Shown piece after piece: positions 1-32,346 of a stretch of DNA of 40,913 nucleotides. Under the pieces are notes generated by a model that saw nothing but the letters and a program-made list of their open reading frames with translations, ran no database searches and was not told where the DNA came from. Numbering within the stretch: position 1 is the stretch's first letter; every line of letters starts with the position of its first letter. Source of the DNA: Methanobacteriota archaeon. GTDB taxonomy: Archaea; Altiarchaeota; Altiarchaeia; IMC4; QMZM01. The position numbers and the translations under genes are program-made. Where the stretch lies: assembly GCA_903930485.1 (NCBI GenBank), contig CAIYYO010000245.1, forward strand, positions 1-40,913, written 5' to 3'.

Positions 1-806
1 ATGCATCCTCCTCCGGATTCGGGCGAAAGCAATACGTAGAACACGTTATTGGTCTGGATGGCCTTCACCGGGAAATACCCGGACTTTGTCGGGAACTTGG
101 CCTTTACTACTGCGCCTTCCCAATCCAGCACGACTGCGTTCGAGCCGTAGGCGACGAAGAAGCGGTTCGGGCCTACTGCGAGAGCGACCGGGTCCTTCTG
201 GCCGCTGTCTATCTGGAATGCGTCTTTGTGGAGCGTCCCGTCCATGTTGAAAATGACGCCGTAAAAGTCCCCAATATGGTAAGTACCGTATTCGAATACG
301 CATTCCCCGACTAGGAGGAACCGCCCGCCTCCGCTTTTCGGATACCAGAGAGTGGAGGTCGTGCTCGTCGAGGTCGTAGTAGTCGTGACGGTCGTGACGG
401 TTACGAAAGTCCAGGTCGTGGTCGAGGTAGAGGTCGTAGTCGTGGGAGGCGCGGTCCTGATGCAGTCGCATTTGAATTCCTTCATGTCCGAGCCGTGGAC
501 GATATAATTCACGGTCGGGCAGGCGATTATGACTATTATAAAGGCGATGAAGCCCTGTATAACCATCTTCTTGGCCGCGCCTTTGCGCTCTGAGTCTTCG
601 CTGGTCGAATATTTCAGGCCGGAGACGACGACGAGCAGGGCGAGGATGGCCGTGGCAAGAGCCCACAAAACGCACAGGACGAGCCTTACGGCGTCTTGCA
701 TGCGCCAGCCGATGAAGCTAAGAGGCGACGACGAGTTGCCTTGGCCGTAGGCTGCGGCGGCGAGGATGCAGACTATCACGAGAAGATGGATCGATCGGTT
801 TTCCAT
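1..806 (-). CDS. Secreted/membrane-anchored protein: VirB2/TrbC-type pilin-like helical hairpin + Thr-rich linker + beta-rich ectodomain (paralog of 850..2322; C-terminus runs off the window)
   Basis: Absent from the ORF track because it is open to base 1. My reverse-strand translation from the ATG at 806 reads MENRSIHLLVIVCILAAAAYGQGNSSSPLSFIGWRMQDAVRLVLCVLWALATAILALLVVVSGLKYSTSEDSERKGAAKKMVIQGFIAFIIVIIACPTVNYIVHGSDMKEFKCDCIRTAPPTTTTSTS...GGRFLLVGECVFEYGTYHIGDFYGVIFNMDGT..., with no stop down to base 3. It is colinear with, and about 75-80% identical by eye to, the N-terminal ~270 aa of the neighbouring gene. Confidence 0.8.
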   Translation of the reverse strand, partial: MENRSIHLLVIVCILAAAAYGQGNSSSPLSFIGWRMQDAVRLVLCVLWALATAILALLVVVSGLKYSTSEDSERKGAAKKMVIQGFIAFIIVIIACPTVNYIVHGSDMKEFKCDCIRTAPPTTTTSTSTTTWTFVTVTTVTTTTTSTSTTSTLWYPKSGGGRFLLVGECVFEYGTYHIGDFYGVIFNMDGTLHKDAFQIDSGQKDPVALAVGPNRFFVAYGSNAVVLDWEGAVVKAKFPTKSGYFPVKAIQTNNVFYVLLSPESGGGC

Positions 807-849: not shown

Positions 850-2322
850 TTACCAGTCGTACGCCGCCCATCCAGGAGATTCCGCCATGACCAGAGGCAG
901 GGTGTCGACTACGTGGTTTCCGTTGAAATCCAGGAACGATGCGCCTATCCCGTCGTCGGTAGTATGTATGGCCACGATCCCTACGAACATGTGGTTGCCG
1001 TAGGCGAGGCTCGTCGGCACGTCGCCGTGTCCGCCGAAGGTTCCGGGGCCGACGACGTTCCCGTCCTCGTCGAGGTATTCCGCTACGTTGTTGTAGGCTT
1101 CCATGAATTTCCCGTCGCCGTAGACCATGTCGTGGACGCACACTATATCGGCCGATGTTGTTTTAGATGTCTGGTAAACGCCGTTGAGATCGTAGATGAA
1201 AACTTTGTCGAGGAAGGCTACTATGAAGTATTTTTGCCCCGCCTCCACTTCTGCGTTGATAAACCCGCATTCCGGTGAGCTTATCGTCGTTACCTCGAAC
1301 TTGCCCTTCACCTGATTCCCGGAGAGGTCATAGATGATCCCGTATATCACGCTGTTCGTGTGGTCCGTCCATGTTATGAACAATTTGCCGTTCCCGAGAG
1401 CCATGTCGCCTTCGGCGAAATAGTCCCCGCCGAACCCCAGGGCAGAGGTTCCTATCTTGTCGATGGCCACAGAATAAGTGTTCTGGAGGTCCCCGTCGAG
1501 GCCGTAGACTTGTATGACGCATCCGGTGCCCGTTTTCGGCGAAAGGAGGACATAGTATTTGCTGTTGGCCTGTATGGCTTTTATCGGGATGTATCCTGCC
1601 TTTGTCGTGTACTTTGCCTTGATAGTGTTGCCTTCCCAGTCCAGTATCACGGCATTCGAGCTGTATCCTACGAAGAACCTGTTAGGGCCTACTGCGAGAG
1701 CGACCGGGTCTTGTACGCCGCTGTCTATGAAGAAGGCGTTCTTGTGGATGGTTCCGTCCATGTTGAATATGACTCCGTACATATCCCCTTCATGATAGCT
1801 CCCCCAGTCGAATATGTCGATGCCTACTAGGAGGAACCTTCCGCCGCCGCTCTTGGGGTACATCGTCGTCGTGGTAGTAAAGGTCGTGGACGTCGTGGAA
1901 GTTACCGTCGTGACGGTAGCAAATGTCCAGGTCGTAGTCGTCGTCGAAGTCGTGGTCGTGGGCGGAACGACCCTGATGCAATCGCATTTGAACTCCTTCA
2001 CGTCCGAGCCGTGGACGATGTAATTTACGGTCGGGCAGGCGACGACGACTATTATGAAGGCGACGAAGCCCTGTATCACCATCTTCCTGGCTTTGTCTTT
2101 CTGTTCCGAGTCCCCGCTCGTCATGTATTTAAGCCCGGAGACGACGACGAGGATGGCAAGGACAGCCGTTGTAAGCGCCCACAGCGCGCACAAAACGAGC
2201 CTTGCGGCGTCTTCCAGACGCCAGCCGATGAAATGAAGCGGCGACGACGAGTCCCCCTGCGCATAGGCCGCGGCGGCGAGGATGCAGACCACAGTGAGAA
2301 GTTGGATCGTTTTGTTTTCCAT
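850..2322 (-). CDS. Secreted/membrane-anchored protein: signal peptide + VirB2/TrbC-type pilin-like hairpin + Thr-rich stalk + ~370-aa beta-rich (propeller-like) ectodomain
   Basis: ORF 850..2373. The likely start is MENKTIQLL at 2322, because the conserved TATA box lies inside the longer ORF. Signal peptide ...AAAAYA/QG. Hairpin LVLCALWALTTAVLAILVVVSGLKYMTSGDSEQKDKARKMVIQGFVAFIIVVVACPTVNYIV, followed by EFKCDC. Thr/Ser run PPTTTTSTTTTTWTFATVTTVTSTTSTTFTTTTT. The rest is repetitive and beta-strand-like. Confidence 0.85.
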   Translation of the reverse strand: MENKTIQLLTVVCILAAAAYAQGDSSSPLHFIGWRLEDAARLVLCALWALTTAVLAILVVVSGLKYMTSGDSEQKDKARKMVIQGFVAFIIVVVACPTVNYIVHGSDVKEFKCDCIRVVPPTTTTSTTTTTWTFATVTTVTSTTSTTFTTTTTMYPKSGGGRFLLVGIDIFDWGSYHEGDMYGVIFNMDGTIHKNAFFIDSGVQDPVALAVGPNRFFVGYSSNAVILDWEGNTIKAKYTTKAGYIPIKAIQANSKYYVLLSPKTGTGCVIQVYGLDGDLQNTYSVAIDKIGTSALGFGGDYFAEGDMALGNGKLFITWTDHTNSVIYGIIYDLSGNQVKGKFEVTTISSPECGFINAEVEAGQKYFIVAFLDKVFIYDLNGVYQTSKTTSADIVCVHDMVYGDGKFMEAYNNVAEYLDEDGNVVGPGTFGGHGDVPTSLAYGNHMFVGIVAIHTTDDGIGASFLDFNGNHVVDTLPLVMAESPGWAAYDW

Positions 2323-2345
2323 TCCGTTTATATTATTATGTCTGC

Positions 2346-2360
2346 GGCTTATATAGAAAG
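2346..2360 (-). promoter_or_regulatory. TATA-box promoter of the 850..2322 gene
   Basis: The minus strand reads ctttcTATATAAgccgcagacataataatataaacggaATG, the same spacing and sequence as 826..845. Confidence 0.55.
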
Positions 2361-2429
2361 GGCCGGTTATCATTCGTCCAACGATGTTTATGTTATTTCT
2401 TCAGCTAATACAATAAACTTTAGATTAAA

Positions 2430-12455: not shown

Positions 12456-12465
12456 AAATAAATTA

Positions 12466-12497
12466 TTTTTTTCTTTTTCTTATCTATTTTTTTTAAA
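12466..12497 (+). terminator. Poly-T terminator tract
   Basis: tttttttctttttcttatctatttttttt lies immediately after the stop at 12455. Confidence 0.4.
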
Positions 12498-12625
12498 CGT
12501 CTGCGATTTTACGAAGTCATTGACTCGTGGGCCGCTGGATTTGGGTCGAGTTAGGAGCAGCCGAAAGAGACGTTTGAATCCTATCCCTCATTAATCTTAA
12601 TATTCTGCCTCCTCATAATCTACTG

Positions 12626-14041
12626 ATGCGATCTTCAATTTCAGAAAATAAGTTTTTGGATTCAATAAAACACTTAGGTACAACTTTGGGTAGAACACCA
12701 AAGTTTGAAGAGTGCTCCAAGATTCCTGGCTTTTATGCATATTACAGGAGATTCAAATCACTGAAAACGATTCTTGACAGAGCTGGATTGTTAAATGAAA
12801 TTAAGAGATGCATCTTTTGTGGTAACTCATTTTCTAGGAGAGATTTTTCTATTTGTCACTTTAATAGAGCAAAATTCTGTTCAGCAAAGTGTAGAAAGAA
12901 GGCCGAAATCGCTAGCGAAAACAAGAAAAAAAGAGACAAGGAATATTATCTAATGAATAGGGAAAAAATAATAAAGCGAGTAAGAGAATATGAACTCCGA
13001 AACAAAAAACCGTTGGAGAGTCGGATTTGTTTACTTTGTAAGACCAGGTTTCAGCCGAAAATTGCTTTTCAAATATTTTGCTCGGATAAATGCGCCAAAG
13101 AATACTCCCGTACTGTACGGCACCCTGAGATATCCAAAGCCAAAGCGAAAAAGGGATGGGAGAAACGTAAACTTGCTGAAAATGAAAGAAGAAAGATACT
13201 AGGGCTTCCTCTTATTGGTGAAGGGTATGCTGCGGAAACAGAAATGAAATTAGTCTTAGACACAATTTTTTACAATAAAGAAAAAATCGATAATGGTTAC
13301 TGGGTAGTAAGAGACGGAATTCTGATAACTAAAGCGGGCCGTTTAGGAGGTCGTCAATTAGATCGGTATTATCCAAAACTCAAGTTGGCTTTTGAATACC
13401 GAGGGGAACAACATTATAGTAGAAGGAGCTACTACTATCAGGGAGAGCCTCGTTTTATCAAAACACAACAATGGGACAAAGAAACAGAAGATATGTGTGA
13501 AAGGACAGGTGTTTGTTTGGTTATCCTAAGTTGGAAAGACCGATTATGGCGAGATAATATTCTAAAAAAAATTATTGAACGTGGGTTTGATGTTACTCTT
13601 GAAATGCTTGAACCAAGAGCAGTTAAATGGAAAAGACCAGAATCAAAAGAAGTAATAGGGTTATATCTCAACGGGACGCGTACTCACGACATTGCAAAAA
13701 AATATGGTGTTAGAGCATCTCTAATAAGAAAAATACTAAAAATGAGCGGCGTTAGGCTTCGCAGTAGAAGCGAGGATTCAAAACTAATGTGGAAGAAAGA
13801 GGGCTTCAGAGAGTTGTATTCAAAACGAACAATAGGAATTCCTTCTCCTAAGCGGCAAATCTATAAAGAGGAGGACATTAAAAAGATTATTTTCCTGTAT
13901 AACCAAGGTCATTCGACTCTTCAAATATCCAAAATAACTGGGTACACTCCTATGTCAGTTTTAACTGTTCTTCGATTGAATGGTGTTAAGATAAGAACGA
14001 GAAGCGAAGCTGCCAAGCTTAGATATTCAAAAAATCGATAA
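12626..14041 (+). CDS. Homing-endonuclease-like multidomain protein: HEAR repeat + 2 FCS-type zinc fingers + PD-(D/E)XK (Vsr/DUF559-like) nuclease core + 2 C-terminal HTH modules
   Basis: 471 aa.
- N-terminus: FLDSIKHLGTTLGRTPKFEE...YYRRFKSLKTILDRAGL, the homing-endonuclease-associated-repeat pattern.
- Zinc fingers: CIFCGNSF...FCSAKCRKK and CLLCKTRF...FCSDKCAKEY (FCS type).
- Nuclease core: ETEMKLVLD...QLDRYYPKLKLAFEYRGEQHY.
- C-terminal duplicated modules: HDIAKKYGVRASLIRKILKMSGVRLRSRSE and LQISKITGYTPMSVLTVLRLNGVKIRTRSEA. Confidence 0.65.
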   Translation: MRSSISENKFLDSIKHLGTTLGRTPKFEECSKIPGFYAYYRRFKSLKTILDRAGLLNEIKRCIFCGNSFSRRDFSICHFNRAKFCSAKCRKKAEIASENKKKRDKEYYLMNREKIIKRVREYELRNKKPLESRICLLCKTRFQPKIAFQIFCSDKCAKEYSRTVRHPEISKAKAKKGWEKRKLAENERRKILGLPLIGEGYAAETEMKLVLDTIFYNKEKIDNGYWVVRDGILITKAGRLGGRQLDRYYPKLKLAFEYRGEQHYSRRSYYYQGEPRFIKTQQWDKETEDMCERTGVCLVILSWKDRLWRDNILKKIIERGFDVTLEMLEPRAVKWKRPESKEVIGLYLNGTRTHDIAKKYGVRASLIRKILKMSGVRLRSRSEDSKLMWKKEGFRELYSKRTIGIPSPKRQIYKEEDIKKIIFLYNQGHSTLQISKITGYTPMSVLTVLRLNGVKIRTRSEAAKLRYSKNR

Positions 14042-14090
14042 GGGTAACTTTCCCCCATCAGATATTAATCCGTAGACGATTATCTTTTCC

Positions 14091-15776
14091 ATGTTCGGCC
14101 GCAAAGGCGTTTTCAGCCTTAAGGGTATCGATTACAAGTGGATCGCCCTATTCAACACCACCCTCGGGACCTTGATGGCGACTTTGAATGCGAGCATCGT
14201 CTTGATCTCTTTGCCTGATATCTTCCGGGGCATCGGCATCGATCCTCTTGCGCCTGAGGAGACGTCTTTCCTGCTTTGGACCTTGATGAGCTACATGGTC
14301 GTTACCGCTGTCCTGCTTCTGACCTTCGGCAGGCTGTCGGACATCTACGGCAGGGTCCGATTATATAACTTGGGGTTCGCGATCTTTACCTTTGGTTCGA
14401 TCCTTCTCTATTTCGTCCAGGGTTCCGGCGATTCGGCGGCGATCCAGATAATCCTTTTCCGCATCGTCCAGGGCATCGGCGGCGCCTTTCTGATGGCGAA
14501 TTCGGTTGCGATAATCACGGATGCTTTCGGCAGGGAGCAGAGGGGCTTCGCGCTTGGCATCAATCAGGTCGCGGCCTTGAGCGGCAGTTTTCTCGGCTTA
14601 CTGATCGGCGGCCTGCTTTCCCCGGTCGACTGGAAAGCGATATTCCTCGTCAGCGTTCCGTTCGGCATAATAGGGACCGTGTGGGCGTATCTCATGCTTA
14701 AGGAGTCGTCTGCGCCCAAGAAGAACCAGAGGATCGACCTGTTAGGCAATTTCCTTTTCGCAGGCGGGCTTATTGCAGTGCTAGCATCCATGACATACGG
14801 GCTGCTGCCATACAGATCCGAGCCGATGGGATGGAACAACCCCTGGGTGTTGGGAGGAATGGCCCTCGGATTAGCGTTCCTTGCCGCGTTCGTCCTGTAC
14901 GAGCCGCGCATAAAGGACCCTCTTTTCGACTTCGGGTTCTTTAGGAGCAGGTCTTTCGCAATGGGGAACCTGGCTAATTTCCTCTCCTCGATAGCGAGAG
15001 GCGGCCTGCAGTTCCTTGTCATCCTCTGGCTTCAGGGGATATGGTTGCCGCTGCACGGCTACTCGTTCGAGGTCACGCCGTTCTGGGCCGCGATCTACAT
15101 GCTGCCTTTGACGGCGGCGATCCTCTTGTTCGGCCCGGTGAGCGGATATATTTCCGACAGGATCGGCTCGCGCATGATCGCGACGACGGGACTGTTTTTA
15201 ACGGTTCTTGCATTCCTCGGGTTCTCGTTCCTTCCCGCGGATTTCCAGTATATCTGGTTCGCGGTACTGCTCTTCGTGATGGGCATGGGGATGGGCCTGT
15301 TCGGTTCCCCGAATACAGCGGACATAATGAACTCGGTCCCGCCGGAAGAAAGGGGCGCTGCATCGGGAATAATCGCGACCTTCATGAATACCGGGATGAC
15401 GTTGAGCATGGGATTGATCTTCGCGCTGGTGACAATAGGAATTAGCACCGCGCTCCCGGGACAGCTTTTTTCAGGCCTGACCGAAGCAGGCGTGCCCCAA
15501 GCCACTGCATCGATGGTTTCCCATCTCCCGCCAACCGGCGCCCTGTTCGCAAGCTTCCTCGGATATAATCCGCTGCAGACATTGATCCCCGCAGACGTCC
15601 TTAAAAGCCTTCCGGCAGCGACGACGGAACAAATACTAGGCAAGAAATTCTTCCCGACGCTGTTATCCGGACCGTTCATCGACGGCGCTAGGATAGCGTT
15701 CTACGTTTCCCTTGCTCTTTCGCTGATGGCGACCGTGGCATCGTATTACAGGGCGGATCCCAAGAGAAAGAAATAG
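14091..15776 (+). CDS. MFS transporter, 14-TMS DHA2/EmrB-like
   Basis: 561 aa and polytopic. Contains [16 protein letters not shown] (the MFS motif A region). Confidence 0.85.
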
Positions 15777-15779
15777 CTA

Positions 15780-17120
15780 TCAACCGCCGCTCGCCCACAA
15801 TCCTATCAGATTCAGCACCTGCCCTATCGTCGCATGTCCTTGGGCCCATTGCCCTATGATGGTGAGTACTTCTCCGACGGTTACTTGTCCGCATGGCGGG
15901 GTGTCGCCCGGGTTCGCGCAGGACGATGGCATGGTCGTTGTCGTAGTTCCGTAGGTCGTCGTAGTCGCGCCAGGCGTTGTCGTATCCGTTATCTCCACGG
16001 TGTAGTCTTCGACTTCCCCGAAGTAGATCGGGTCGCATGGGCCCTTGCTTAGCCAGTTGTCCGTGATCCTCATCCTGGTCTTTCCCGTGAGGGCGTTTGC
16101 TGGCACTGTCATCGTCTTCGTGAAAGTGTGCGTGCCGGAAAACTCGTAGGTTCCGAGGTCTATTGCTTCCCCGGCGTCGGTGTAATCGTGGTCCTGGTTG
16201 TAGTCTATCCAGGCTTTGACGTATTCTCCGGAGTAGTAGCTTACGTTCACCTGGACGGCGAGCACGTATTGTTGTCCTCTTGCGAGCGTCGTCAGTGTCT
16301 GGGCCGTGTAGTCCGAGTAATCGCTTCCGCCCGAAGCCGTCGAGCCTGTGTTCAAGGTTACGCGGCTGATGTATTCGCCGTAGTAGTCGCTGGAGCTTAT
16401 CATGCAATAAGGCGTGCACGATAGCTGGGTCACGTTGAATCCCGTGTAGCCTAAGGAGCCGTCTACGGATTTGTCGCTGGTGAATCTGATCGTCGTTGTC
16501 GAGTTCAGGGGCGCGTAGAATCCCGACCATTGGCCTGAGAGCTCCTGGTTTCCGAGCGTCAGCGTGTCGTAATAATCTTCAGTTTTTCCTTTAGAGTATG
16601 CCCCCATCTGCATGTTCCCGGGGCATGTGCACGTGATGGAGCAGTTCATGTTGCTCCCGTACTCGGTCTGGTTGAGGCTTATGCTTACGTTGTTCACTCC
16701 CTCGGCAAGTCCTGAGCATGACCAGGAGGGACAGGGTTTTGTCTGGGCGTTCGGGGTGTTGTCCACTGTGACGTAGACCATGTCCCGGCTTGAGATGTTG
16801 TTCGAGTCGGTGACTGTCAGCCTTAGCGTGTATTGCCCGTCCGGGACTTTCGAGGTGTTCCATGAGCCCAGTATGCTCTGGTTTATGTTCGACGTTCCTC
16901 CGCCGGTGAGCCCTATGCCTGTTGTGGTCCAGTTAGCCGGGTTCCGGCCTGGTCCGACCTCGAGCACGTACCTTGCGATGTTCGGGCTTATCGCCGTGCC
17001 GTTCACCCTGGTCGTACCGTTGATGAAGCCTTCCTGGTTGGTGACGCACCCGCAACTGAACAAGACGAGGACGGCAAGCATGACTGCCCCTGACTGTTCA
17101 TTTCTCTTCATAGGTGACAC
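15780..17120 (-). CDS. Secreted protein: subtilase-associated Ig-like N-domain + CUB-like domain + GEVED domain + Thr-rich linker + tandem dockerin-like C-terminal motif
   Basis: 446 aa.
- Signal/lipobox-like AVLVLFSCGC.
- ARYVLEVGPGRNPANWTT...VPDGQYTLRLTVTDSNN...VYVTVDN.
- CUB-like ...TTTIRFTSDKSVDGSLGYTGFNVTQL.
- ...YFGEVEDYTVEI (GEVED signature).
- TDTTTPGATTTTYGTTTTT linker.
- Tail VTVGEVLTIIGQWAQG / ATIGQVLNLIGLWASG.
The start overlaps the upstream S8 protease gene by 23 nt. Confidence 0.75.
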   Translation of the reverse strand: MSPMKRNEQSGAVMLAVLVLFSCGCVTNQEGFINGTTRVNGTAISPNIARYVLEVGPGRNPANWTTTGIGLTGGGTSNINQSILGSWNTSKVPDGQYTLRLTVTDSNNISSRDMVYVTVDNTPNAQTKPCPSWSCSGLAEGVNNVSISLNQTEYGSNMNCSITCTCPGNMQMGAYSKGKTEDYYDTLTLGNQELSGQWSGFYAPLNSTTTIRFTSDKSVDGSLGYTGFNVTQLSCTPYCMISSSDYYGEYISRVTLNTGSTASGGSDYSDYTAQTLTTLARGQQYVLAVQVNVSYYSGEYVKAWIDYNQDHDYTDAGEAIDLGTYEFSGTHTFTKTMTVPANALTGKTRMRITDNWLSKGPCDPIYFGEVEDYTVEITDTTTPGATTTTYGTTTTTMPSSCANPGDTPPCGQVTVGEVLTIIGQWAQGHATIGQVLNLIGLWASGG

Positions 17121-19341
17121 CTTCCAAGTTGTTTATCAAAGCGACCGGCGGAGGACTCGTCAGCATCAGGGCTGCCGAGACGTTGATAACACCCGCTCCC
17201 TGTATGTTGCTGTCGTATCCGAGGTCCTGGGCCGTGTCTTTGAGCGCGGCTTTGATCTGCAGCGGAGACCATGTCGGGTCCTTCTGTAGCAGAAGCGCCG
17301 CGGCTCCGGCAACGTGCGGGGTCGCCATCGAGGTCCCTGAGAGCGCCACGTGCCTGTCGTCGAGGCAGGGGGTCTCGGAGAACGAGGTAGCCCATCTCGC
17401 CGAACAAATGGCTACGCCGGGCGCGAGTACGTCGGGCTTATCATAGATGTATGCCGGCCCTCTCGAGCTGAAATCCGCGATGATGTTCGGGTCGAGCGAA
17501 ATGATGATGGTCGCGGAAACGGTCCCGTTGTCTAGGAGGCTGCTTAAGTATTCCCCGTCTTCTTCGGAGATCGACACCGCGGGTATGCTTGACACGTTGA
17601 CGAGGTCGCCTTTGAAATTGCCGTAGTAGTTGTTGTAGATTATCGCGCCTACTGCGCCCGCATTGTATGCGTTCCTGACTTTTTCATTGAAGGTGATGTT
17701 GCCCCTCTTTATGAGGGCGATCATTCCCGCGAGGTTTTTTCCTGCAAAATCCGTAGACAATCCGAGGCCTGAATATGTGAGGATGCCCGTTACACCGTTT
17801 GAGGGCGTGGTTATCGAGCTGCTTAAAGCGAACGAGTCTATCGGGTTCTCTGCCTTGTCAACGCTCAGGTTCGAGAGCCTGTTCCTTCCCGGGTCGGACC
17901 TCTTGTAGATGGCTCCTACGGTCAGGGCTTTGCGAGCGCATCCCGGGGACGCGATGGTGCCGTTGTCCGGTCCGTTGTTCCCTGCCGCGACCGCAACGAC
18001 AACTCCTGCAGCTACTGCATTATCAACCGCCGTGGACAAGGCGTCGTCAGGGCTTCCGTATCCTCCGAGGCTGAGGCTTATCACGTTCGCGCTGTCGTTC
18101 ACTGCCCTGTCTATCCCGGCTATTATGTCGTCTTCGCTCCCTTCCCCGGCCGAGCTCATGACCTTGTACGCAAGCAGCTTCGCGTCAGGGGCCACGCCTT
18201 TCAATGTCCCGTTCCCGGCTGCGATGCCGGCGCAATGCGTTCCGTGGCCCTGGTCGTCCATCGGGTCGTCGCTTCCGTCGATGAAATTGTATCCGCCGAC
18301 GACTTTCGAGCAGTTGCTCAGGCCCGAGGAGACGGTGCCGTTGAGCACTTTGTCTATCTCGAAGCCCCAGGAGGTGTCCGACCAGTCGGTCTCGAAGGTC
18401 ACGGTCAGCGTGTCTCCGCTTACAGACGGGCTCCAGGTGTCGTTGTAGATGCCGGTGTAAGTCTTTACGGTATTCCCGGTCGAGTTCTTGAGGTATATGA
18501 CGTCGTATCCGTATTCGGTGTCGATGGTCTTGAAGTGGACCGCCATCTTCGAATAGCCGGGCATCTTTATCGTCCAGTTGTACGTCATGTCGTTATGGTA
18601 TGGGTGTTCAGACGAGAGGGAGTAAGCAGTCGTGCTCCCGTCGAGCCGCCTGCCCGTGCAGTTGCCGAGGTCCGGGTGCGTGTAATCGATCCCCGTGTCG
18701 ACGATGGCGATGGTCACGCCTTTGCCCGTGATGTTCCTGCCCAGGGCGTCTTTCATCCCCCATGCCTGGGCCGCGCCGATCATCGGCACGCTTTCAGAGA
18801 GCGTGATGTGATACGATTTTATGGGATATATCTTTTTGACCGCGTCGAGCGAGCCGAGGTATATGACGTCTTTTTCCGAAACGTTTTCCAGGGACATTCC
18901 GTCAAGCACGTTCATGTATTCCCTTCTGACCGACGGCTTGCCCTCTGCGAGGCTTAGGAGCTGCGCAACCCTTAGGTGCTCGTCGGTCATCTTCGCGACG
19001 TGGTCTTCCAGGGACTGCAGTCCTGTGGCCTCTTTTTTGTATTCGGACAAGGGCTCCTCCCTCAGCTCGACGATGTATCTGCCCAGGCTCAGGTATTTTT
19101 GCAGCGCTTTCTCGTCGACGGGATCAAGCGGCAGGGGCACCCGGCCGTCCGGGTATTTCTTCTGGACGTATTTGGCCGCTTCCGGGGGCAGGTAAAACTT
19201 GTTCAGGTCGACAAAGGCGGCCTGCTGCAGCGCATTGGAAGGCATGGGCTTCACCGTACCCTCTTTTAGAGAAAAGTTCTGGGTAAGGCCGAGGCAGAGG
19301 ATTGAAAGTAAAACGATCGACGGGATCACGGCCTTCTTCAT
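17098..19341 (-). CDS. Secreted subtilisin-like serine protease (peptidase S8) with I9-like propeptide, a CUB-like insert between catalytic Asp and His, and a PA domain
   Basis: 747 aa. Catalytic motifs VTIAIVDTGIDYTHPDL (Asp), DDQGHGTHCAGIAAG (His) and LSGTSMATPHVAGAAALLL (Ser). The PA-domain region is GKNLAGMIALIKRGNITFNEKVRNAYNAGAVGAIIYNN. Asp and His are 151 residues apart. Confidence 0.93.
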   Translation of the reverse strand: MKKAVIPSIVLLSILCLGLTQNFSLKEGTVKPMPSNALQQAAFVDLNKFYLPPEAAKYVQKKYPDGRVPLPLDPVDEKALQKYLSLGRYIVELREEPLSEYKKEATGLQSLEDHVAKMTDEHLRVAQLLSLAEGKPSVRREYMNVLDGMSLENVSEKDVIYLGSLDAVKKIYPIKSYHITLSESVPMIGAAQAWGMKDALGRNITGKGVTIAIVDTGIDYTHPDLGNCTGRRLDGSTTAYSLSSEHPYHNDMTYNWTIKMPGYSKMAVHFKTIDTEYGYDVIYLKNSTGNTVKTYTGIYNDTWSPSVSGDTLTVTFETDWSDTSWGFEIDKVLNGTVSSGLSNCSKVVGGYNFIDGSDDPMDDQGHGTHCAGIAAGNGTLKGVAPDAKLLAYKVMSSAGEGSEDDIIAGIDRAVNDSANVISLSLGGYGSPDDALSTAVDNAVAAGVVVAVAAGNNGPDNGTIASPGCARKALTVGAIYKRSDPGRNRLSNLSVDKAENPIDSFALSSSITTPSNGVTGILTYSGLGLSTDFAGKNLAGMIALIKRGNITFNEKVRNAYNAGAVGAIIYNNYYGNFKGDLVNVSSIPAVSISEEDGEYLSSLLDNGTVSATIIISLDPNIIADFSSRGPAYIYDKPDVLAPGVAICSARWATSFSETPCLDDRHVALSGTSMATPHVAGAAALLLQKDPTWSPLQIKAALKDTAQDLGYDSNIQGAGVINVSAALMLTSPPPVALINNLEGVTYEEK

Positions 19342-21447: not shown

Positions 21448-22335
21448 ATGTTGCTACTACCCGTGCTTGTCGTGCTCGCATCTATCGTGTTCCTGGGACT
21501 CGCCAGCCTGGCCGACCTGCGCACCGGAGAAGTCCCGGACGGACTAAGCTACGGCTATACGGTTGTGATGATCCTGCTTGCGGCCTACGGCTCTTACACA
21601 TTCAATGACACCTCGCTTGTGACCGACTCCCTCATAATGGGTGCATGTTTTTTCATAGCCGGGTTCTTAATGTTCTACCTCGGGCAATGGGGCGGCGGAG
21701 ACGTGAAAGTCCTAGCAGGGATAGGCTGCGCCCTCGGATCCCTCAACCATATAGGATACCTTCCGCAGGCCGCGCTCTCCTTTTATCCCTACTACCTGTC
21801 GTACCTGACAAACCTGATCTTCATAGCGTTCCCGTATGCCGCGATCTACGGCCTCGTTATCGGCTTCAATAATCCCGACACGCGGAAGGAATTCGGCGCC
21901 TACGTTGGAAAGGCCAGGACAAAGGCGATATTGATAGCGTCTTTGTCCCCCTCGCTCCTTGCATTCCTCGTAAACCTCCAGAAGCTGGCCTCGTTCTATT
22001 TACTCCTGCCGGTCATGCTCACCGTCGCGCTTTACCTCAAAGCGGTCGAGAAAACAGCACTCAGGCAGTCAAAGGATGTAAAGGACCTGCGAGAAGGCGA
22101 CGTCGCGGCAGAAGACCTCGCTTGCGGCAACGAAACAATCGCGAGCAAGAGAGACATCGAAGGCATGAGCCCGGACGCTATCAAAAAGATCCAGGAACTG
22201 TCTGCAAAGGGAGAGCTTCCGGGCAGGATAGTAATAAAAAGAGGCATCAAGTTCACGCTTGTATTGTTCCTCGCATTCCTAACGTCAGTCTACCTCGGCA
22301 ACCTGGTGGAGATAATCACTGGTTTGCTGATATAG
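21448..22335 (+). CDS. A24-family aspartic prepilin/preflagellin peptidase (FlaK/PibD/EppA/TadV-like), copy 1
   Basis: 295 aa and polytopic. First catalytic Asp in LASLADLRTGEVPD, second in the GxGD-type motif QWGGGDVKVLAGIG. There is no methyltransferase domain. Confidence 0.8.
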   Translation: MLLLPVLVVLASIVFLGLASLADLRTGEVPDGLSYGYTVVMILLAAYGSYTFNDTSLVTDSLIMGACFFIAGFLMFYLGQWGGGDVKVLAGIGCALGSLNHIGYLPQAALSFYPYYLSYLTNLIFIAFPYAAIYGLVIGFNNPDTRKEFGAYVGKARTKAILIASLSPSLLAFLVNLQKLASFYLLLPVMLTVALYLKAVEKTALRQSKDVKDLREGDVAAEDLACGNETIASKRDIEGMSPDAIKKIQELSAKGELPGRIVIKRGIKFTLVLFLAFLTSVYLGNLVEIITGLLI

Positions 22336-22345
22336 CGACGGCTGG

Positions 22346-24280
22346 TCAGCACTGGAGGGCCGGCAGCGTCGAGAGATAATCCATGCACTTCTGGCAGAAA
22401 GCCCTCGGACCTGGAGCGTTGGCCGCGCTCATAATGCATCTGCCGCCTGCAGGGTCTTTATTCCCGAAACATGTTCCGTCGTCCCGATTAGACGAGCACA
22501 GGGTTCCGCCTGCGCAGTATCCTGTCCATTTGCTCTCGCTGGCGTCTCCTCCGCCGATAAGGGCGTCAAGGCAATTGGCTTTGGAGTTGGCGTCATGCGG
22601 AAAACACCTGCACGTGTCCCTGTACTCGTCGTTCAGTCCCCAGCCGTGACCCAGCTCGTGCAGCGCGTAATAAGGCATATCAGGCTCGGCCGCCCCCTGA
22701 GTGTAAACGACGCCGCTTCCCGGCCAGTCGAAGCCGCCTATCTCGCCTCCGCAGGTGCTGAGGTCCTCCATCCCGATGAAATAGGTCGCATCCGAAGTCT
22801 TGTCTTTGCCGCAGGCCTTTATCGTCTCCATGAGCTTTTCCTGGAAAGCCCCGGCAGAGCATTCCGCGTCCGTGGCCGGGATGGTGATGGCGCATTGCTT
22901 GTCGGTAGTGCTGAATTCCACTTTGGCAGGGCAGTTCTTCAGGGGTGTGAGCGTCTTGATCAGGTTTGCGACTTCGTTGGCTTTGTCCGTGAAGCTCAGA
23001 GAATTCCATGAGCCAAGCTGGACGAAAACGAATTTCAGTTTAGTTGTGGGGTTCGGGACAGGCGCGTTCACCGAGACTTTGGCCGCGGCCGAGACGGTCA
23101 CCGTGTCGCACAAACACCCGTACGACACCGTGTAATCGCCGTTGCCGGGATAGAAATTCTTCTCGCTCGTGGAGGCGGAATCCACCTGTTTAGGGCCGTC
23201 GACCCCGCCCCAGTCCAGCCCGCATTTCTCGCACAACACGCTGGCTCCGGCACTGTTCACGTATCCGTTGCTGAGAGTCGCATAGACTGTGCTGTACGGG
23301 ACCGAAGATTCGCTCCTGCCCTGGAAAGAGCCCAAAGTCAGGCCGACCTTGGCGGTGCATGTCGGATCATACGTGCAGCAGCAGCCTCCGGGACAGGTCT
23401 TGCATTTCTCCTGCTGCTTGCACGTTTTCATATTCATCCCTTCGCCGCAGACATAGTTGCATTTGTCGTCGCATGCGCTCTTTATGACGATTATCTGACA
23501 AAGCTGGCCGTACTTTGCGGCATCAGCCGTCCATTTCCCGCCGGCGCAGCAGAGCTTGTCCGGGTTTTCCCTGCACGGACAATCGGTTCCAGTGCATGCC
23601 TCCCCGGCGACGTATTTCGAGGTTGTTCCCCCGATGACGAAAGAATACGACCCAAGGTTGGTGCAATCGCAATTCAACGGAGAAATAGCCCCGCCGGTCA
23701 CGTAATTCAGGGCCGGGATCGCTATCCCAAGGAAAAGCAGGCCGACAAGCGCGTTAATGACCCAGCCGCGCATCACTGCCCTGAGATGCGGATCTCCGGA
23801 GGACATGTACCTTAGAGCCGCCACAAGGATTATCAATGCCGCGACGAATGCTGCGACGTATTCGAACAGGCATATTACGCGGCACGAGACGGCGTCGAAG
23901 AATTCCTTTATCTGGTGATGGGGCGTGCATGCGCAATTGAAGGATGCGAAGACCTTTTTAGTCAGGCCCTGCTGCGACCCTTCGACGAACATGTTCAATG
24001 CGGGCAGGGCTATCAAAACCAGCACGAGGCCCACCATTGCATACATTATATAACTCTTCATAGAGTGCCTTACGCCGGGGTCGTCGGACGTCATGTAGCG
24101 AAAGCCCGAGAGGACGATGACGACGGCAGATATCGCGAGGATGACGTATTCGATAAAGCAGGCCATGTTGCAGACTATGGAATCATAGACGCCCTTCAGC
24201 TCCGTTGAGATCGGGCCCGCGTAAACCGGCGTCACGACAAAGAAAAACAATGCCGCGGCAAGCAGTAGTCTGTACTCCAT
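22346..24280 (-). CDS. Secreted membrane protein: two tandem VirB2/TrbC-type pilin-like hairpins + Cys-rich region + metzincin-like Zn-protease motif (HExxHxxGxxD)
   Basis: 644 aa.
- Signal peptide ...TPVYA/GP.
- Hairpin 1: ILAISAVVIVLSGFRYMTSDDPGVRHSMKSYIMYAMVGLVLVLIALPALNMFV ... FNCAC.
- Hairpin 2: AAFVAALIILVAALRYMSSGDPHLRAVMRGWVINALVGLLFLGIAIPALNYV ... LNCDC.
- About 45 Cys follow.
- YALHELGHGWGLNDEY at 22646..22660 (HELGH).
- A possible Met-turn, GRCIMSA, lies 70 residues further on. Confidence 0.8.
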   Translation of the reverse strand: MEYRLLLAAALFFFVVTPVYAGPISTELKGVYDSIVCNMACFIEYVILAISAVVIVLSGFRYMTSDDPGVRHSMKSYIMYAMVGLVLVLIALPALNMFVEGSQQGLTKKVFASFNCACTPHHQIKEFFDAVSCRVICLFEYVAAFVAALIILVAALRYMSSGDPHLRAVMRGWVINALVGLLFLGIAIPALNYVTGGAISPLNCDCTNLGSYSFVIGGTTSKYVAGEACTGTDCPCRENPDKLCCAGGKWTADAAKYGQLCQIIVIKSACDDKCNYVCGEGMNMKTCKQQEKCKTCPGGCCCTYDPTCTAKVGLTLGSFQGRSESSVPYSTVYATLSNGYVNSAGASVLCEKCGLDWGGVDGPKQVDSASTSEKNFYPGNGDYTVSYGCLCDTVTVSAAAKVSVNAPVPNPTTKLKFVFVQLGSWNSLSFTDKANEVANLIKTLTPLKNCPAKVEFSTTDKQCAITIPATDAECSAGAFQEKLMETIKACGKDKTSDATYFIGMEDLSTCGGEIGGFDWPGSGVVYTQGAAEPDMPYYALHELGHGWGLNDEYRDTCRCFPHDANSKANCLDALIGGGDASESKWTGYCAGGTLCSSNRDDGTCFGNKDPAGGRCIMSAANAPGPRAFCQKCMDYLSTLPALQC

Positions 24281-24335: not shown

Positions 24336-25580
24336 TCAGGCCTGGGATACTATTATCCCGTTCTCGTAGACCATGTTCTCCTTCTCTATCTTCTTCCTGC
24401 CGACCTTTACGCCAGCGAACCTGGAATCGTCGAGGAGCACTTTCGAGACCTTGCCTAATTCAGCTCCCTCCTTGTTAACGACCTTTTTCCCGGCATACTC
24501 CTTTATCCACCTCTTTTTGGCGTTGATCTCCTCGATGAAGATCAATTCGGTCCCCTTCACTACTATCACGAAGAACACGAGAGACAGGAATATGGAGAAC
24601 CCGAATTCCGTCAGCTTCGCCGTCGTCGTCTTTTCAACGAGGTAATAAGCCCCGGACTGCGCCGTAAGGGTTATAAGGACGATGAGCGCGAGAAGGATTA
24701 TGTATCTCCTGATGGAAAGATACCTCTCCATCGAGTATTCATCAATAATCCTGCCCACTATGGCGATCACGAACGCAAGCAGCACGAGGTCGGCGTAATT
24801 CAGCGTCAAAGCCGTCTTGATGGAATCGAACAAGCCCACCGGATTCGTCTTGACGAATTCGTCGTAGTTGAAGGCCAGGCCCACCATCAAAGTCACGAAG
24901 GCGAGGACATAGGCTATAATACTGATTCTCTCGATAGACAGCGACCTCAGGAATTCCGAAGACCTCGAGAACAACTCTTCCTCGAAGCCCAGCCCCTTGA
25001 TAATGAGATAAATCCCCAGGATCGCGAGCAGGAGCAGCATCGTCTGCAGGAAGACGTTCAACGCCGCGCCGACAGCTATCAGCAGGAGGACGAGTCCCGG
25101 CAACGCGAAGATCAGGTGCGCCAGGTTCGGGTCCTTCTCCACTTCGCGCAGGAAATTCGTTATCGTGAAATACGCTTTCTCCAGCTCCTTGCTCTGCCTG
25201 ACAATGACGGTCTTCACGGAATTGATCTTGACCCTTGACTGTATTATCGGAATCAGCTGCTCGTCTTCTGCGCCGTCGGTCACCAGGACGACGGATTCGG
25301 GCTTGAATTTCGCAAGAATGGCGTCAAGCTGCTTCGCTATCTTCTCGTCGGAGACCAGGCCGACGTCGTCGTCTCCCACCAGCGTTACGACCTCGGCTCC
25401 CAGGATCCTTGCAGTCTTCACCGCCTCAAAGAGAGCGTTGACGTCCGTGTCCTCCGGGTCGGCAAGGCCGAGCTCTCTGGCAGCGTTCAGGTTCGCCTCT
25501 TCGCCTATCAGCGGGCCTTCTATATGGGCTTTCTCTCCTATGTCGTTGTCTCTGTCGACGCACAAGACAAGGGTTTTCAT
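24336..25580 (-). CDS. DUF373-family archaeal membrane protein
   Basis: 414 aa. MKTLVLCVDRDNDIGEKA...LGLADPEDTDVNALFEAV N-domain, followed by about 7 TM helices. Confidence 0.8.
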   Translation of the reverse strand: MKTLVLCVDRDNDIGEKAHIEGPLIGEEANLNAARELGLADPEDTDVNALFEAVKTARILGAEVVTLVGDDDVGLVSDEKIAKQLDAILAKFKPESVVLVTDGAEDEQLIPIIQSRVKINSVKTVIVRQSKELEKAYFTITNFLREVEKDPNLAHLIFALPGLVLLLIAVGAALNVFLQTMLLLLAILGIYLIIKGLGFEEELFSRSSEFLRSLSIERISIIAYVLAFVTLMVGLAFNYDEFVKTNPVGLFDSIKTALTLNYADLVLLAFVIAIVGRIIDEYSMERYLSIRRYIILLALIVLITLTAQSGAYYLVEKTTTAKLTEFGFSIFLSLVFFVIVVKGTELIFIEEINAKKRWIKEYAGKKVVNKEGAELGKVSKVLLDDSRFAGVKVGRKKIEKENMVYENGIIVSQA

Positions 25581-29365: not shown

Positions 29366-30457
29366 GTGATGCAACCCCTGCTCGATCTATTCTCGGTATT
29401 GACGGCGCTGGCCGGCTGTTTTATCGCCCTCAGGTCCGACCTGGCGACCGGGAAGATCCCTAATAGGCTGACTAATAGAATGCTTGCGGCATCGTTTATT
29501 CTGATGATCCTCCGGGTTTTTTCAGGGGACTCGTCATACCTCGGGCTGTATCTTCTGAATTTCGCAGCAGGCTTCGTCATCGGGTTCGTTTTCTGGTACG
29601 TCCAGGCATGGTCGGGCGGAGACGCCAAGATATTCTGGGCCATCGCATCCCTGATACTAGTTTATCCTCCGGCGCTGGAGGGGTTGTTTGGGGTGAGCCA
29701 GCCTTATTATTCCTCTCAGGTTTTTGCAGTGACCGTACTTTTCAACATGGGGCTGCTGCTCCTATTGCGTTTTCTTTTCATGGGATTAACCAAATTCCTG
29801 AAAGAAGGAAAGATAATAGACGCTTTCAGGCTCACGACGTCCCCGATGATCTATATCATGGCGTCTACCTTGATCGGGACCGGATTGGCGGCCGTGGCAG
29901 GAATACCTGCCTTGATTTACGTTTCGTGGCCGGTTATCTTTCTCCTTTCCGTAATAGAGCGGAGCTCGTACAGGAAATTCCTGGTTTCATCGGCTCTCAT
30001 AGCCGTTCTAGGGTTCGCGGCACTATCTCTGACGTCTAAACAGAACATTGCCTACGAACTGCTCTCGAACAAGCAAACGCTTGGCATAGCATTCCTCCTT
30101 TCGGCTTATGCAGCAGGCTCAAGGATCCCTTTCACGAAAAATATGCCCATCAAGGATTTAAAGACAGGGATATCGGTGGCCGAGGAAATATACACCACGG
30201 ACGGCTCGATCATCCGCGAGGAAGTCAATCCTTCCCTTATGTATTCCTTTCTCTCGATTCTGAAGCCCAGGAGAAACTATATCGTCCGTCCCACCCCGGC
30301 AGGCCTTTCAGAAAGGGACATAGAGGAGTTGAAAACGCATGAAGCCGATCTTGGAGGTTCCATTAAGGTAAACCAGAGCTTCCTGTTGATGCCCTATATA
30401 ACCGCCGCCCTGCTGCTTTCTCTGTATGCTGATTTCCTGTGGATCCTGCTTTCCTGA
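29366..30457 (+). CDS. A24-family aspartic prepilin peptidase (TadV/CpaA/PibD-like), copy 2, adjacent to the pilus locus
   Basis: 363 aa and polytopic. First Asp in IALRSDLATGKIPN, second in AWSGGDAKIFWAI. The start is GTG 29366 or ATG 29369. Confidence 0.78.
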   Translation: MMQPLLDLFSVLTALAGCFIALRSDLATGKIPNRLTNRMLAASFILMILRVFSGDSSYLGLYLLNFAAGFVIGFVFWYVQAWSGGDAKIFWAIASLILVYPPALEGLFGVSQPYYSSQVFAVTVLFNMGLLLLLRFLFMGLTKFLKEGKIIDAFRLTTSPMIYIMASTLIGTGLAAVAGIPALIYVSWPVIFLLSVIERSSYRKFLVSSALIAVLGFAALSLTSKQNIAYELLSNKQTLGIAFLLSAYAAGSRIPFTKNMPIKDLKTGISVAEEIYTTDGSIIREEVNPSLMYSFLSILKPRRNYIVRPTPAGLSERDIEELKTHEADLGGSIKVNQSFLLMPYITAALLLSLYADFLWILLS

Positions 30458-30470
30458 TTCCCGCGGGGAA

Positions 30471-32339
30471 TCACATCATGCCTTCAAAAACGAGCTGCAT
30501 GACCACGACCGTCAGGGAGAATATGATCGCCGCTACCGGGAGATAGATCCCGAGATGGTATTTCTTTATCACGGCATCCCTGCCGTATATCAGGTCGTCC
30601 GAGAACATGGCAAGGATAGCCGTCGTCTCTAGGACGTAGATGCCTATCACCAGTTTGATGACCTCGGGGTTCAGCGTCTTTACGACAAGGCCTCCGAAGC
30701 CGAGCCCGGAGACGTCGCTTTCGCTCAAGGTCTTGGATAGCAGATAGCCGAGGCTTGTAGCTACCCCGCCCACGAGGGGGCCGACGAACACTGCGATAAT
30801 CACCATGGACGCTGTGACGTTGCCGATGATCTTCTTCATCTCGGCATCGACGGTCCGCATATTCCTTATGTGCTCGGACAGCCGTATTATCACCGAGGCG
30901 ATGGATTTCGAATTCCTGCCGGACATCGATACGATGGTGTCGAGGGAGCTGTGTATCATCTCGGAGTATATTTTTGAGGCCGAGCCTCCCCTCTTTCCGA
31001 AGAACGCTTCGCGCATGTCGATATTGAACAGCCGGATGTTGTTCGCTGCCATGGAGAAGATGTTGGCCGTGCGTCCCCTGTTCAGGTCCGAGATGTGCGC
31101 CATTGCGTTAGGAAGGGGCCGGCCGCTCGACAAAAGAACTGAAAGCTGCCTGAGGGTTTCGGAAAATTCTTCTTCTATGTCCTTTATCTCGTCCCTCATT
31201 TTCTTTACGCTGTAAGACGATCCTACCAAGTAAATGCCCAAACCGACTGTTATGCCGATGAGGATGAGCGACGTACCTAAAGGATAGTTCGGCGCCTCGT
31301 CACGCAGCGAGGAACCGAGGTCGAGAAAGCCGAGAAGGCAAATAGAGGCGGCGATAAGTGCTATCACTCCGTAAAAGGCGTACCTTACCGGCCTGTTCCC
31401 GGCCTTTATGCCGAAGAATCGGTTGTACTCCTCTGCGGGGATCTCTATCGGCGGAAATGTTATGGGCTTGCTGCTTATGATGAAGCTGACGGCGATGTAT
31501 AATAGTATTGGGAGGACGACGTCGTAGAGGAAGAATATTACGAGAGGCGAGACCTCTATCCCGATGGTCGGCATCACGGGTACAAGGCCTATGAAAATGA
31601 GCGGGAGTATAACAAGAAATGTGAAAACAACGAGGATGGGCGTTTCGAGCTTTCTCGAAGCCGTATCTGTCCTTTCTCGCAGCCCGCTGAGGAGGACGTT
31701 CATCCCGTTGTCGAGCATCATCCACCGGTTCTTCTCGCTGGATTCCAGCGTCGAGGCAATCAAGAGCTGCATGAAGGCCTTGAACTCAGGGATATTGCCC
31801 CACTCGTCTGCGAATTTGGACAAAGACTCGACGATGCTCGAGCTTCTGCCCATGTCTATGTCGAAGACCATCCTCTTTAAAAGCTTCTTCGGAAAACCCG
31901 GGGTATGCTCTGAAGCGAACTCGACCGCCTTCTCGATTATCGGGCTGATGCGTAGAGAGATGACAAGGTAGCTTGCTATGGCTGGTATGTGCCCCAGCAT
32001 CTCGGTCTTCTTCGATTCCAGGAGTATCTGCGGGTATTTCTCGACGTACAGGTAAACGGCCAACGGAAGAATGAGAAAGAAGACGTACAAAGGCGTGAAC
32101 AGAGTAGAAGAGACCATCGAAACCAATACCATCGCCAGGATGAGGATGAATAAGACTATAGCTGCTCCAAGGGATAGAGCATGCACCTCCTTAGGCTTTA
32201 CTTTGATCTCGAGAAGGTCCAAGGTGTCTTCAAGGAGCTTGTCCTGTTTAGACGTTTTCTCCTGCTCGACGGTCTTTCCAAGATGCCTGTAGGCCAGACG
32301 GCATAAGCTTTCGAACAGCGTTGGACGGTCCTTTTTCAT
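30471..32339 (-). CDS. Type IV pilus platform membrane protein, fused TadB/TadC (FlaJ/PilC, T2SS-F) type
   Basis: 622 aa and polytopic. Two cytoplasmic helical T2SSF-like modules are each followed by TM segments. It lies immediately downstream of the secretion ATPase in the same orientation. Confidence 0.75.
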   Translation of the reverse strand: MKKDRPTLFESLCRLAYRHLGKTVEQEKTSKQDKLLEDTLDLLEIKVKPKEVHALSLGAAIVLFILILAMVLVSMVSSTLFTPLYVFFLILPLAVYLYVEKYPQILLESKKTEMLGHIPAIASYLVISLRISPIIEKAVEFASEHTPGFPKKLLKRMVFDIDMGRSSSIVESLSKFADEWGNIPEFKAFMQLLIASTLESSEKNRWMMLDNGMNVLLSGLRERTDTASRKLETPILVVFTFLVILPLIFIGLVPVMPTIGIEVSPLVIFFLYDVVLPILLYIAVSFIISSKPITFPPIEIPAEEYNRFFGIKAGNRPVRYAFYGVIALIAASICLLGFLDLGSSLRDEAPNYPLGTSLILIGITVGLGIYLVGSSYSVKKMRDEIKDIEEEFSETLRQLSVLLSSGRPLPNAMAHISDLNRGRTANIFSMAANNIRLFNIDMREAFFGKRGGSASKIYSEMIHSSLDTIVSMSGRNSKSIASVIIRLSEHIRNMRTVDAEMKKIIGNVTASMVIIAVFVGPLVGGVATSLGYLLSKTLSESDVSGLGFGGLVVKTLNPEVIKLVIGIYVLETTAILAMFSDDLIYGRDAVIKKYHLGIYLPVAAIIFSLTVVVMQLVFEGMM

Positions 32340-32346
32340 GTTCTCT

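Follow-up and report, generated by a model that had tools for sequence, protein, structure and literature searches.

How do two hairpins of the conjugative-pilin kind come to carry a zinc protease, and what would such a protein do at an archaeal cell boundary? The question is raised by an open reading frame of contig CAIYYO010000245.1, whose 40,913 nucleotides make up the stretch of DNA we analyzed (the window). From its first ATG, this reading frame encodes a 644-residue protein (the target) in five parts. Our preferred answer, to which we give a probability of roughly 0.55, is that the target is a membrane-anchored, Sec-exported surface metzincin with a disulfide-closed double-hairpin base, a Cys-rich stalk and a two-zinc head. 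Its parts and motifs are as follows.

22346..24280, minus strand: the whole open reading frame, 644 residues plus stop, encoding a signal peptide, two pilin-like hairpins, a Cys-rich stalk and a metzincin domain
24218..24280, minus strand: Sec-type signal peptide, residues 1-21, ending in TPVYA before GP, read by eye from the sequence
23924..24217, minus strand: hairpin 1, residues 22-119, with C37-x3-C41 in helix 1, the loop RYMTSDDPGVR, helix 2 and the tail C116-x-C118
23645..23923, minus strand: hairpin 2, residues 120-212, with C133-x3-C137, the loop RYMSSGDPHLR and the tail C204-x-C206
23048..23644, minus strand: Cys-rich region, residues 213-411, with 20 Cys including CPGGCCC, the presumed stalk
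22349..23047, minus strand: metzincin-like catalytic domain, residues 412-644, from AlphaFold2, Foldseek, profile search of PDB sequences and Reprolysin_5
22622..22660, minus strand: zinc motif H541-E-L-G-H545-G-W-G548-L-N-D551-E552-Y553, from conservation in 55 domains
22427..22438, minus strand: Met-turn candidate C615-I-M617-S, with M617 in 55 and R614 in 53 of 55 domains
22385..22396, minus strand: C629-x-x-C632 in the C-terminal helix, a predicted structural zinc site together with C615 and E552

The reading frame is genuine. An identical 644-residue protein is encoded on a second, 12.3-kb contig of another assembly, and the target’s positional ortholog (P0008) likewise runs from a double hairpin through a stalk to the same protease domain; together, these two observations rule out an assembly chimera of separate genes. 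Four further proteins (P0029, P0040, P0064 and P0066) join one or more hairpins to a protease domain of the target type, and another (P0007) carries five hairpins and a downstream HExxH motif, with the protease domain itself not detected there. An exhaustive HMMER search with the target returned 282 representative proteins at E ≤ 1e-3, of which 35 reach E ≤ 1e-30, so the observation is not a product of chance. A word-indexed homolog search matched only the query itself, and the same kind of search with a hairpin profile returned 10 small pilins and nothing more. The original prediction, made by a reader of the bare sequence, had called this architecture apparently undescribed, and that view holds for the sources we searched: neither the literature on VirB proteins and pilins of Altiarchaeota, nor that on PF18895, nor the annotations contained a description of it. 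Both modules are of known kinds; the architecture, the expansion of the hairpins, their closure by cysteines and the protease family are what we did not find described.

The protein contains 43 Cys, with 8 in the hairpins, 20 in residues 213-411 and 15 in residues 412-644. The predicted Cys-richness of the extracellular part, CPGGCCC included, is borne out, but the predicted count of about 45 in some 440 residues becomes 35 in a 432-residue ectodomain. The Cys-rich region (residues 213-411) matches no Pfam family and finds short matches only, in four other proteins. In relatives, the equivalent region consists of PKD, CARDB or Thr-rich sequence, and the target’s is presumably a disulfide-rich or metal-binding stalk.

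The protease domain

We modeled residues 408-644 with AlphaFold2 from a 39-sequence alignment, and obtained a model with a mean pLDDT (predicted local distance difference test) of 93.8 and a pTM (predicted template-modeling score) of 0.91. A Foldseek search of the PDB with this model gave 55 matches at E ≤ 1e-3, and nearly all of the best 50 are metzincins. The top matches include BF3526 (M64), ADAM-8, adamalysin II, snake-venom metalloproteinases, fragilysin and archaemetzincin, with E-values from 2e-5 to 7e-4 and query TM-scores of ~0.4-0.56. In the translation, HELGHGWGLNDEY begins at H541 and CIMS at C615, placing both the predicted HExxHxxGxxD motif and its downstream Met-turn where they had been read. 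Across 55 homologous domains, H541, E542, Y553, M617 and C604 are invariant, while H545 and E552 are each kept in 54 and D551 in 51. The zinc motif, the invariant Met, the high-confidence model and the metzincins at the top of the fold search together identify the C-terminal domain as a genuine metzincin, as originally proposed, and place it in a new family nearest the igalysins and adamalysins.

Several known families resemble this domain, each in part. When PDB sequences were searched with a profile, two M64 proteins, 3p1v (E 4.9e-6) and 4df9, came first, making igalysins (including Thomasclavelia ramosa IgAse, BF3526 and BACOVA_00663) the best sequence-profile matches as well as being among the best fold matches. 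Igalysins and the target also share Asp as third zinc ligand followed by Glu-Tyr (D-E-Y). Unlike the target with its canonical HExxHxxGxxD, however, igalysins have one extra residue in the motif, HExxHxxxGxxD (PMC12237041), and HMMER alignments of the target with 3p1v and 4df9 need a one-residue gap there. The catalytic domains differ as well, with ~230 residues and many more Cys in the target as against 313 residues in igalysins.

Adamalysins and reprolysins (M12B) supply several of the top folds (ADAM-8, adamalysin II and the snake-venom metalloproteinases) and, like the target, are disulfide-rich. Their third ligand is His rather than the target’s Asp, and they agree with the target at a TM-score of ~0.5 and a sequence identity of ~12-15%.

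The original prediction had assigned the domain to the snapalysin type. The spacing part of that proposal stands, as snapalysin (M7) and the target share the exact HExxHxxGxxD motif and a downstream Met, but membership does not: snapalysin has ~130 residues without Cys-rich features against ~230 in the target domain, is absent from the target’s best 50 fold matches, and is only marginally similar in sequence (PDB profile E 0.026-0.027; Pfam M7 in 1 of 39 family members; NCBIfam snapalysin in 2 of 39, E ≥ 0.0045).

In Pfam, the best match of the target is Reprolysin_5, with 26.0 bits against a cut-off of 27, and Peptidase_M64 scores 10.7 bits against 26. When each of 39 homologs was scanned, Reprolysin_5 matched 15, Peptidase_M64 matched 11 (at E ≤ 0.01; best 6.5e-7), Reprolysin_4 matched 8 and M7 matched 1. 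NCBIfam holds no model for the target’s protease family. This family comprises at least 55 clusters at 50% identity, from Altiarchaeota, Woesearchaeota and unassigned metagenome sequences; among the 282 representatives from the HMMER search, ~55 carry the C-terminal protease domain, mostly with a signal peptide only in front of it. The domain defines an uncharacterized metzincin family.

A further likeness to igalysins lies in a putative second metal site. Crystallography of IgAse shows D550 as the third ligand of the zinc, Y552 as the tyrosine switch, and a second, structural zinc bound by E551, the Met-turn residue C606, C616 and C619, with the Met-turn reading C606-I-M608 (PMC12237041); the igalysin Met-turn segment is C-I-M-R (PMC12237041). 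The target’s D551-E552-Y553, C615-I-M617 and C629-x-x-C632 align one for one with these IgAse sites, and the C-terminal helix that carries C629-x-x-C632 spans residues 223-229 of our model. The triad of C615, C629 and C632 is complete in 40 of the 55 homologous domains and wholly absent from 13, co-varying as a unit in 53 of 55. We therefore predict from this alignment that E552, C615, C629 and C632 form a structural zinc site. The target’s family would then join the canonical Asp-metzincin motif to the structural zinc site pattern of igalysins.

The hairpin base and its family

Judged by eye, the N-terminus of the target (MEYRLLLAAALFFFVVTPVYA, followed by GP) has n-, h- and c-regions resembling a Sec signal cut by signal peptidase I, and in aligned relatives the corresponding cleavage position reads AYA/E or VYA/A. 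We considered a class III (prepilin peptidase) signal because a gene for an A24 peptidase adjoins, and rejected it: a [KR]G-hydrophobic site is lacking at the N-terminus, and the target and A24 peptidase genes are convergent.

Hydropathy shows two-helix hydrophobic hairpins with short polar loops, and both loops that the original prediction quoted are exact in the translation. Scored as a whole, the protein reaches 37.4 bits with T4SS_pilin and 35.4 bits with TrbC, above the respective Pfam cut-offs of 26.6 and 27.9, and each profile aligns to two stretches, in line with the VirB2-like character first proposed. Taken separately, hairpin 1 exceeds both cut-offs (TrbC 32.9 bits, T4SS_pilin 27.7 bits), but hairpin 2 falls slightly under that for T4SS_pilin (22.9 bits, E 9e-5). 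The two are 34% identical (BLASTP E 3e-22) and clearly duplicates of one unit. In an AlphaFold2 model of hairpin 1, the one hairpin unit modeled, two long helices span residues 3-43 and 47-80 with a pLDDT of 83 and a core above 90 (59-hairpin alignment). A Foldseek search with this model returned nothing below E = 2, a bare helical hairpin giving the method no power, and a hairpin-profile search of PDB sequences returned zero matches, a two-helix hairpin being too simple for it. The pilin assignment is thus drawn from the Pfam profiles.

The window encodes two more proteins of this kind:

850..2373, minus strand: paralog of 507 residues with one hairpin, a Thr-rich linker and an ectodomain of ~340 residues without Pfam family (T4SS_pilin 27.1 bits, alignment, hidden Markov model)
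3..806, minus strand: second paralog, cut by the window edge and 75% identical to the first, likewise with hairpin, Thr-rich linker and ectodomain

With the target, these three proteins contain exactly four hairpins by hidden Markov model, and all four share the tail P-[AT]-[LV]-N-[YM]..G plus [FL]-x-C-x-C that had been noticed in them.

VirB2-type pilins are known as small subunits that type IV secretion machines produce and put together. VirB2/TrbC pilins, the T4SS_pilin family (PF18895) of Patescibacteria and archaeal CedA1/TedC have the same plan as the target hairpins, with a signal peptide, two hydrophobic helices and a short charged loop, and in VirB2/TrbC-type pilins and the target hairpins alike both termini are predicted to lie outside the cell. 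The differences are equally plain. Conjugative pilins are stand-alone subunits of ~70-140 residues, whereas the target has 644 residues, two hairpins and a 432-residue ectodomain. Unlike conjugative pilins, these hairpins occur in tandem within one chain (two in the target and, in relatives, as many as 17 or more), carry large ectodomains, have conserved Cys pairs in place of cyclization, and are encoded without adjoining VirB4, VirB3 or VirB6. Arrays of VirB2 paralogs are known from Patescibacteria as separate small genes near virB4 (PMC12102498), while in Altiarchaeota the arrays are tandem hairpins within one protein.

The hairpin cysteines follow a regular pattern. All 8 are invariant among seven close relatives of the target, and 197 of 231 hairpin units have as many Cys where helix 1 begins as they have after helix 2; the matched patterns are C/C (126 units), CxxxC/CxC (42) and none at either end (29). 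In the classical cysteine-stabilized-helix arrangement, a CxxxC on a helix is paired with a CxC on an extended segment, and TrbC, VirB2 and TrhA pilins are cyclized head to tail. From these patterns we infer that one or two disulfides may close each hairpin on the extracellular side, in an analog of pilin cyclization. The paired CxxxC/CxC closure would then be its disulfide counterpart.

The hairpin has undergone a massive expansion, in which every member with a source annotation is from Altiarchaeota (Candidatus Altiarchaeia, Altiarchaeales or Altiarchaeota). Proteins carry from 1 to at least 17 tandem hairpins, as in the 1775-residue P0006, with 10-11 each in P0003, P0009, P0011 and P0014. 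Relatives with one or few hairpins (n = 44) match T4SS_pilin in all 44 cases and TrbC in 29, and their ectodomains, of kinds typical for cell surfaces, include CARDB, PKD, cohesin, NosD/beta-helix, CN_hydrolase, Ig-like and protease domains. This range agrees with the early suggestion of a portable base for varied ectodomains, and we conclude that the hairpin base serves as a reusable module specific to this lineage. Searching with a degenerate DNA pattern recovered nine metagenome loci, six of them with hairpins. Proteins that join hairpins to ectodomains are candidate surface markers for an uncultured lineage whose envelope is barely understood.

Giant tandem hairpin arrays are encoded in Altiarchaeales genomes at L012 (4175-9247), L014 (10001-15328) and L019 (1-13356). 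They take the form of 617- and 1039-residue proteins in adjacent genes or of a single 1775-residue protein with ~17 hairpins and ~38 transmembrane helices, and both forms sit at a conserved housekeeping locus between L39e and an Mrp antiporter. An island of four array genes also occurs, and no ATPase or type IV secretion gene lies near the arrays. Elsewhere, a short metagenome contig (L006, 1-2248) has six consecutive small one-hairpin genes, resembling the VirB2 gene arrays of Patescibacteria. We also asked whether hairpin number reflects one layer or ring of a five-start pilus, and rejected this idea, as the counts, spread over 3-11 and 17, show no peaks at 5, 10 or 15.

Arrangement at the membrane

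In the surface-metzincin model introduced above, the target would be exported through Sec and its signal peptide cut after Ala21. Its two VirB2/T4SS_pilin-type hairpins would insert with both ends extracellular, leaving the short net-basic loops (RYMTSDDPxxR) in the cytoplasm. C-x3-C at the start of helix 1 would pair with C-x-C past helix 2 and close each hairpin covalently outside the cell, a staple like that of a cysteine-stabilized helix in the role that head-to-tail cyclization has in TrbC, VirB2 and TrhA. The 200-residue Cys-rich segment would serve as a rigid stalk, and the C-terminal 230 residues as an active metzincin whose catalytic zinc is held by H541, H545 and D551, with E542 as general base, Y553 as the “tyrosine switch” and M617 in the Met-turn. 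A second, structural zinc would be bound at E552, C615, C629 and C632, as in igalysins. The result would be a zinc endopeptidase on the outer face of the cytoplasmic membrane; its topology, disulfides, metal sites, activity and surface location are predictions. What the data show directly are the domain identities, the protease fold, the conserved motifs, the co-varying Cys, the synteny and the swapping of cassettes.

Type IV secretion genes are missing wherever we looked near the hairpins. The 40.9-kb window contains no VirB4, VirD4, VirB3, VirB6 or TraC-like gene, and the same genes are absent within ~10 kb of the hairpin genes in L001, L002, L010, L012-L016, L018 and L019/L020. The negative thus covers the window and ~10 loci, none of which has such genes nearby, co-occurrence with VirB4 included. 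In a control locus with a small T4SS_pilin gene (L021), PrgI, a TraC-like gene and AAA_10/P-loop_TraG lie immediately downstream, so these genes would have been detected at the hairpin loci had they been there. Given that no type IV secretion ATPase is nearby, insertion most likely proceeds via Sec/YidC alone. The VirB2-type hairpin appears here as a concatenated, ectodomain-carrying module at ~10 loci without secretion genes nearby, raising the question of whether pilin hairpins can insert, and perhaps assemble, by themselves.

Several points weigh against a simple anchored protease. G38, R50 and G63 are nearly invariant, and a plain anchor needs no strongly conserved cytoplasmic loop; bases of 5-7 hairpins that carry a single ectodomain, and arrays of 10-17 that carry none, would be equally superfluous for such an anchor. 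The hairpin base probably has a function of its own. No solved pilin matched the hairpin in the fold search or the profile search of PDB sequences, leaving Pfam profiles as the link to pilins. Altiarchaeales live in anoxic, often sulfidic habitats, where ~17 extracellular disulfides may be hard to keep, and some of the Cys may instead bind metals. Type IV secretion genes may lie elsewhere in the genome, the negative being one about loci. Finally, Ca. Altiarchaeum is bounded by an outer membrane (PMC4975002), which could place the ectodomain in the periplasm and not on the surface.

The near-invariant loop is also an argument for a different role, in which the hairpins co-assemble with other hairpin and array proteins and with lipid into a VirB2-like filament, tube or sheath, and the target is a minor subunit decorating it with a protease. 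Tandem hairpins could then be pre-linked protomers, since both termini of a VirB2 subunit lie outside the pilus. We consider this doubtful, though several observations favor it: the hairpins share their domain family with bona fide conjugative pilins, conservation of the loop and of the Arg that opens helix 2 goes far beyond the needs of a passive anchor, disulfide closure would imitate pilin cyclization, and there are arrays of up to 17 or more hairpins with short linkers, islands of four array genes, and small single-hairpin genes in tandem (L006). Against it stand the lack of VirB4, VirB6, VirB3 or TraC-like genes within ~10 kb at ~10 loci, although the control locus shows that such genes can be detected, and the lack of any preference for 5 or 10 hairpins of the kind a five-start pilus layer would suggest. 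A 430-residue ectodomain on every second hairpin would also be sterically awkward.

A bolder form of the same idea, which we regard as speculative and rather unlikely, is that Altiarchaeota have turned the VirB2 hairpin into a self-assembling block that works without a type IV secretion system, giving a new filament, tube or membrane lattice. If true, single hairpins, disulfide-closed arrays and enzyme or adhesin fusions would co-polymerize with lipid, with the target as a catalytic decoration, and the structure could be tied to the lineage’s unusual double-membrane envelope.

The hairpins could also be an export or insertion carrier that is cut past the CxC tail, by the protein’s own metzincin or another protease, releasing a soluble protease and/or pilin-sized hairpins; the arrays would then be polyproteins. 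RP4 TraF provides a precedent for proteolytic maturation of pilins. We judge such processing improbable. In its favor, the module boundary is sharp and conserved exactly past CxC, most homologs of the protease domain (~50 listed) have a signal peptide only and are presumably soluble or otherwise anchored, and proteolysis is part of the maturation of TrbC and VirB2 pilins too (PMC9905601). On the other hand, the linkers yielded no conserved cleavage motif, the disulfide staple would bridge the junction region, the arrays have no consistently adjoining protease gene, and the idea is inferential throughout.

Least probable of these readings is that the protein is an adhesin and not an enzyme, its metzincin fold being a binding or adhesion module or a latent zymogen blocked by the Cys-rich region. 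In its favor, Q replaces H545 in 1 of 55 homologs and a few lack D551, a flap occludes the cleft in two structural-genomics relatives of igalysin (PMC12237041), and the family’s fusion partners are mostly adhesion-type domains, but H541, E542, H545, D551, Y553 and M617 are all intact in the target and invariant or nearly so in the family.

The locus in Altiarchaeales

Scanning GTDB species genomes with a degenerate pattern turned up two metagenome-assembled genomes of Candidatus Altiarchaeales, and the window is collinear with both and with three more contigs. The common gene order runs T2SSE, T2SSF, A24 peptidase, NucS, PRPP synthetase, (MC1), DUF373 and the double-hairpin gene, then A24 peptidase, HAD, PfkB, …, thermosome, MBL, …, HTH and Asp kinase. 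The thermosome is 94-97% identical to those of the syntenic relatives and other proteins 45-91%. By its synteny and its thermosome (95% identity), the host is an Altiarchaeales archaeon. The original prediction had imagined an episymbiont with host-contact effectors; this framing is unsupported, because the synteny is that of Altiarchaeales and the order is described as free-living, with a biofilm-forming Alti-1 and a free-living Alti-2 (PMC4975002). The target’s immediate neighbors are conserved:

24336..25580, minus strand: DUF373 membrane protein, upstream across a 55-bp gap and kept in all syntenic loci
21448..22335, plus strand: archaeal A24 prepilin peptidase, convergent with the target gene

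Between DUF373 and this A24 peptidase, the double-hairpin base is kept and the ectodomain varies. It is missing in L001 and L002 (236-242 residues) and a short tail in the closest relative (P0002, L016; 353 residues), while the target (644 residues) has a Cys-rich stalk and protease, and P0008 (L015; 869 residues) a PKD stalk and protease. DNA similarity to L016 stops at nucleotide 23649 (~residue 210, just past the CxC of hairpin 2) and resumes at 22335. The 1.3 kb coding for the ectodomain is a cassette that has been swapped at a fixed junction. That ectodomains are exchanged so fast at a conserved locus suggests that the Altiarchaeal surface is under strong diversifying pressure.

Divergence from L016 is uneven across the locus. 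The hairpin protein is 60% identical and the two A24 peptidases 60-65%, and the slower neighbors reach 91% (DUF373 and NucS), 87% (T2SSE) and 97% (thermosome).

Scanning the window for Rfam families and for tRNA genes gave no matches. Positions 12001-19341 have a GC content of 0.37 against ~0.55 and include an HNH/homing-endonuclease-like open reading frame at 12626..14041. The block of HNH, MFS, GEVED and S8 subtilase genes is absent between thermosome and PfkB in L001, L002 and L016, while S8 and GEVED are present there in L013. The region looks like a variable, possibly mobile island with secreted proteases.

Positions 29366-34683 and 21448-22335 together encode two archaeal A24 prepilin peptidases and a T2SSE/T2SSF ATPase/platform pair of the type IV pilus-like kind. 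Across Altiarchaeales, these genes keep their synteny with the hairpin gene, and the target itself has no class III signal. Beside T2SSE/F, positions 35543-37835 hold small same-strand open reading frames (167, 267, 166 and 160 residues), one with a Lamin Tail Domain, which may encode pilins or surface proteins of the T2SSE/F system.

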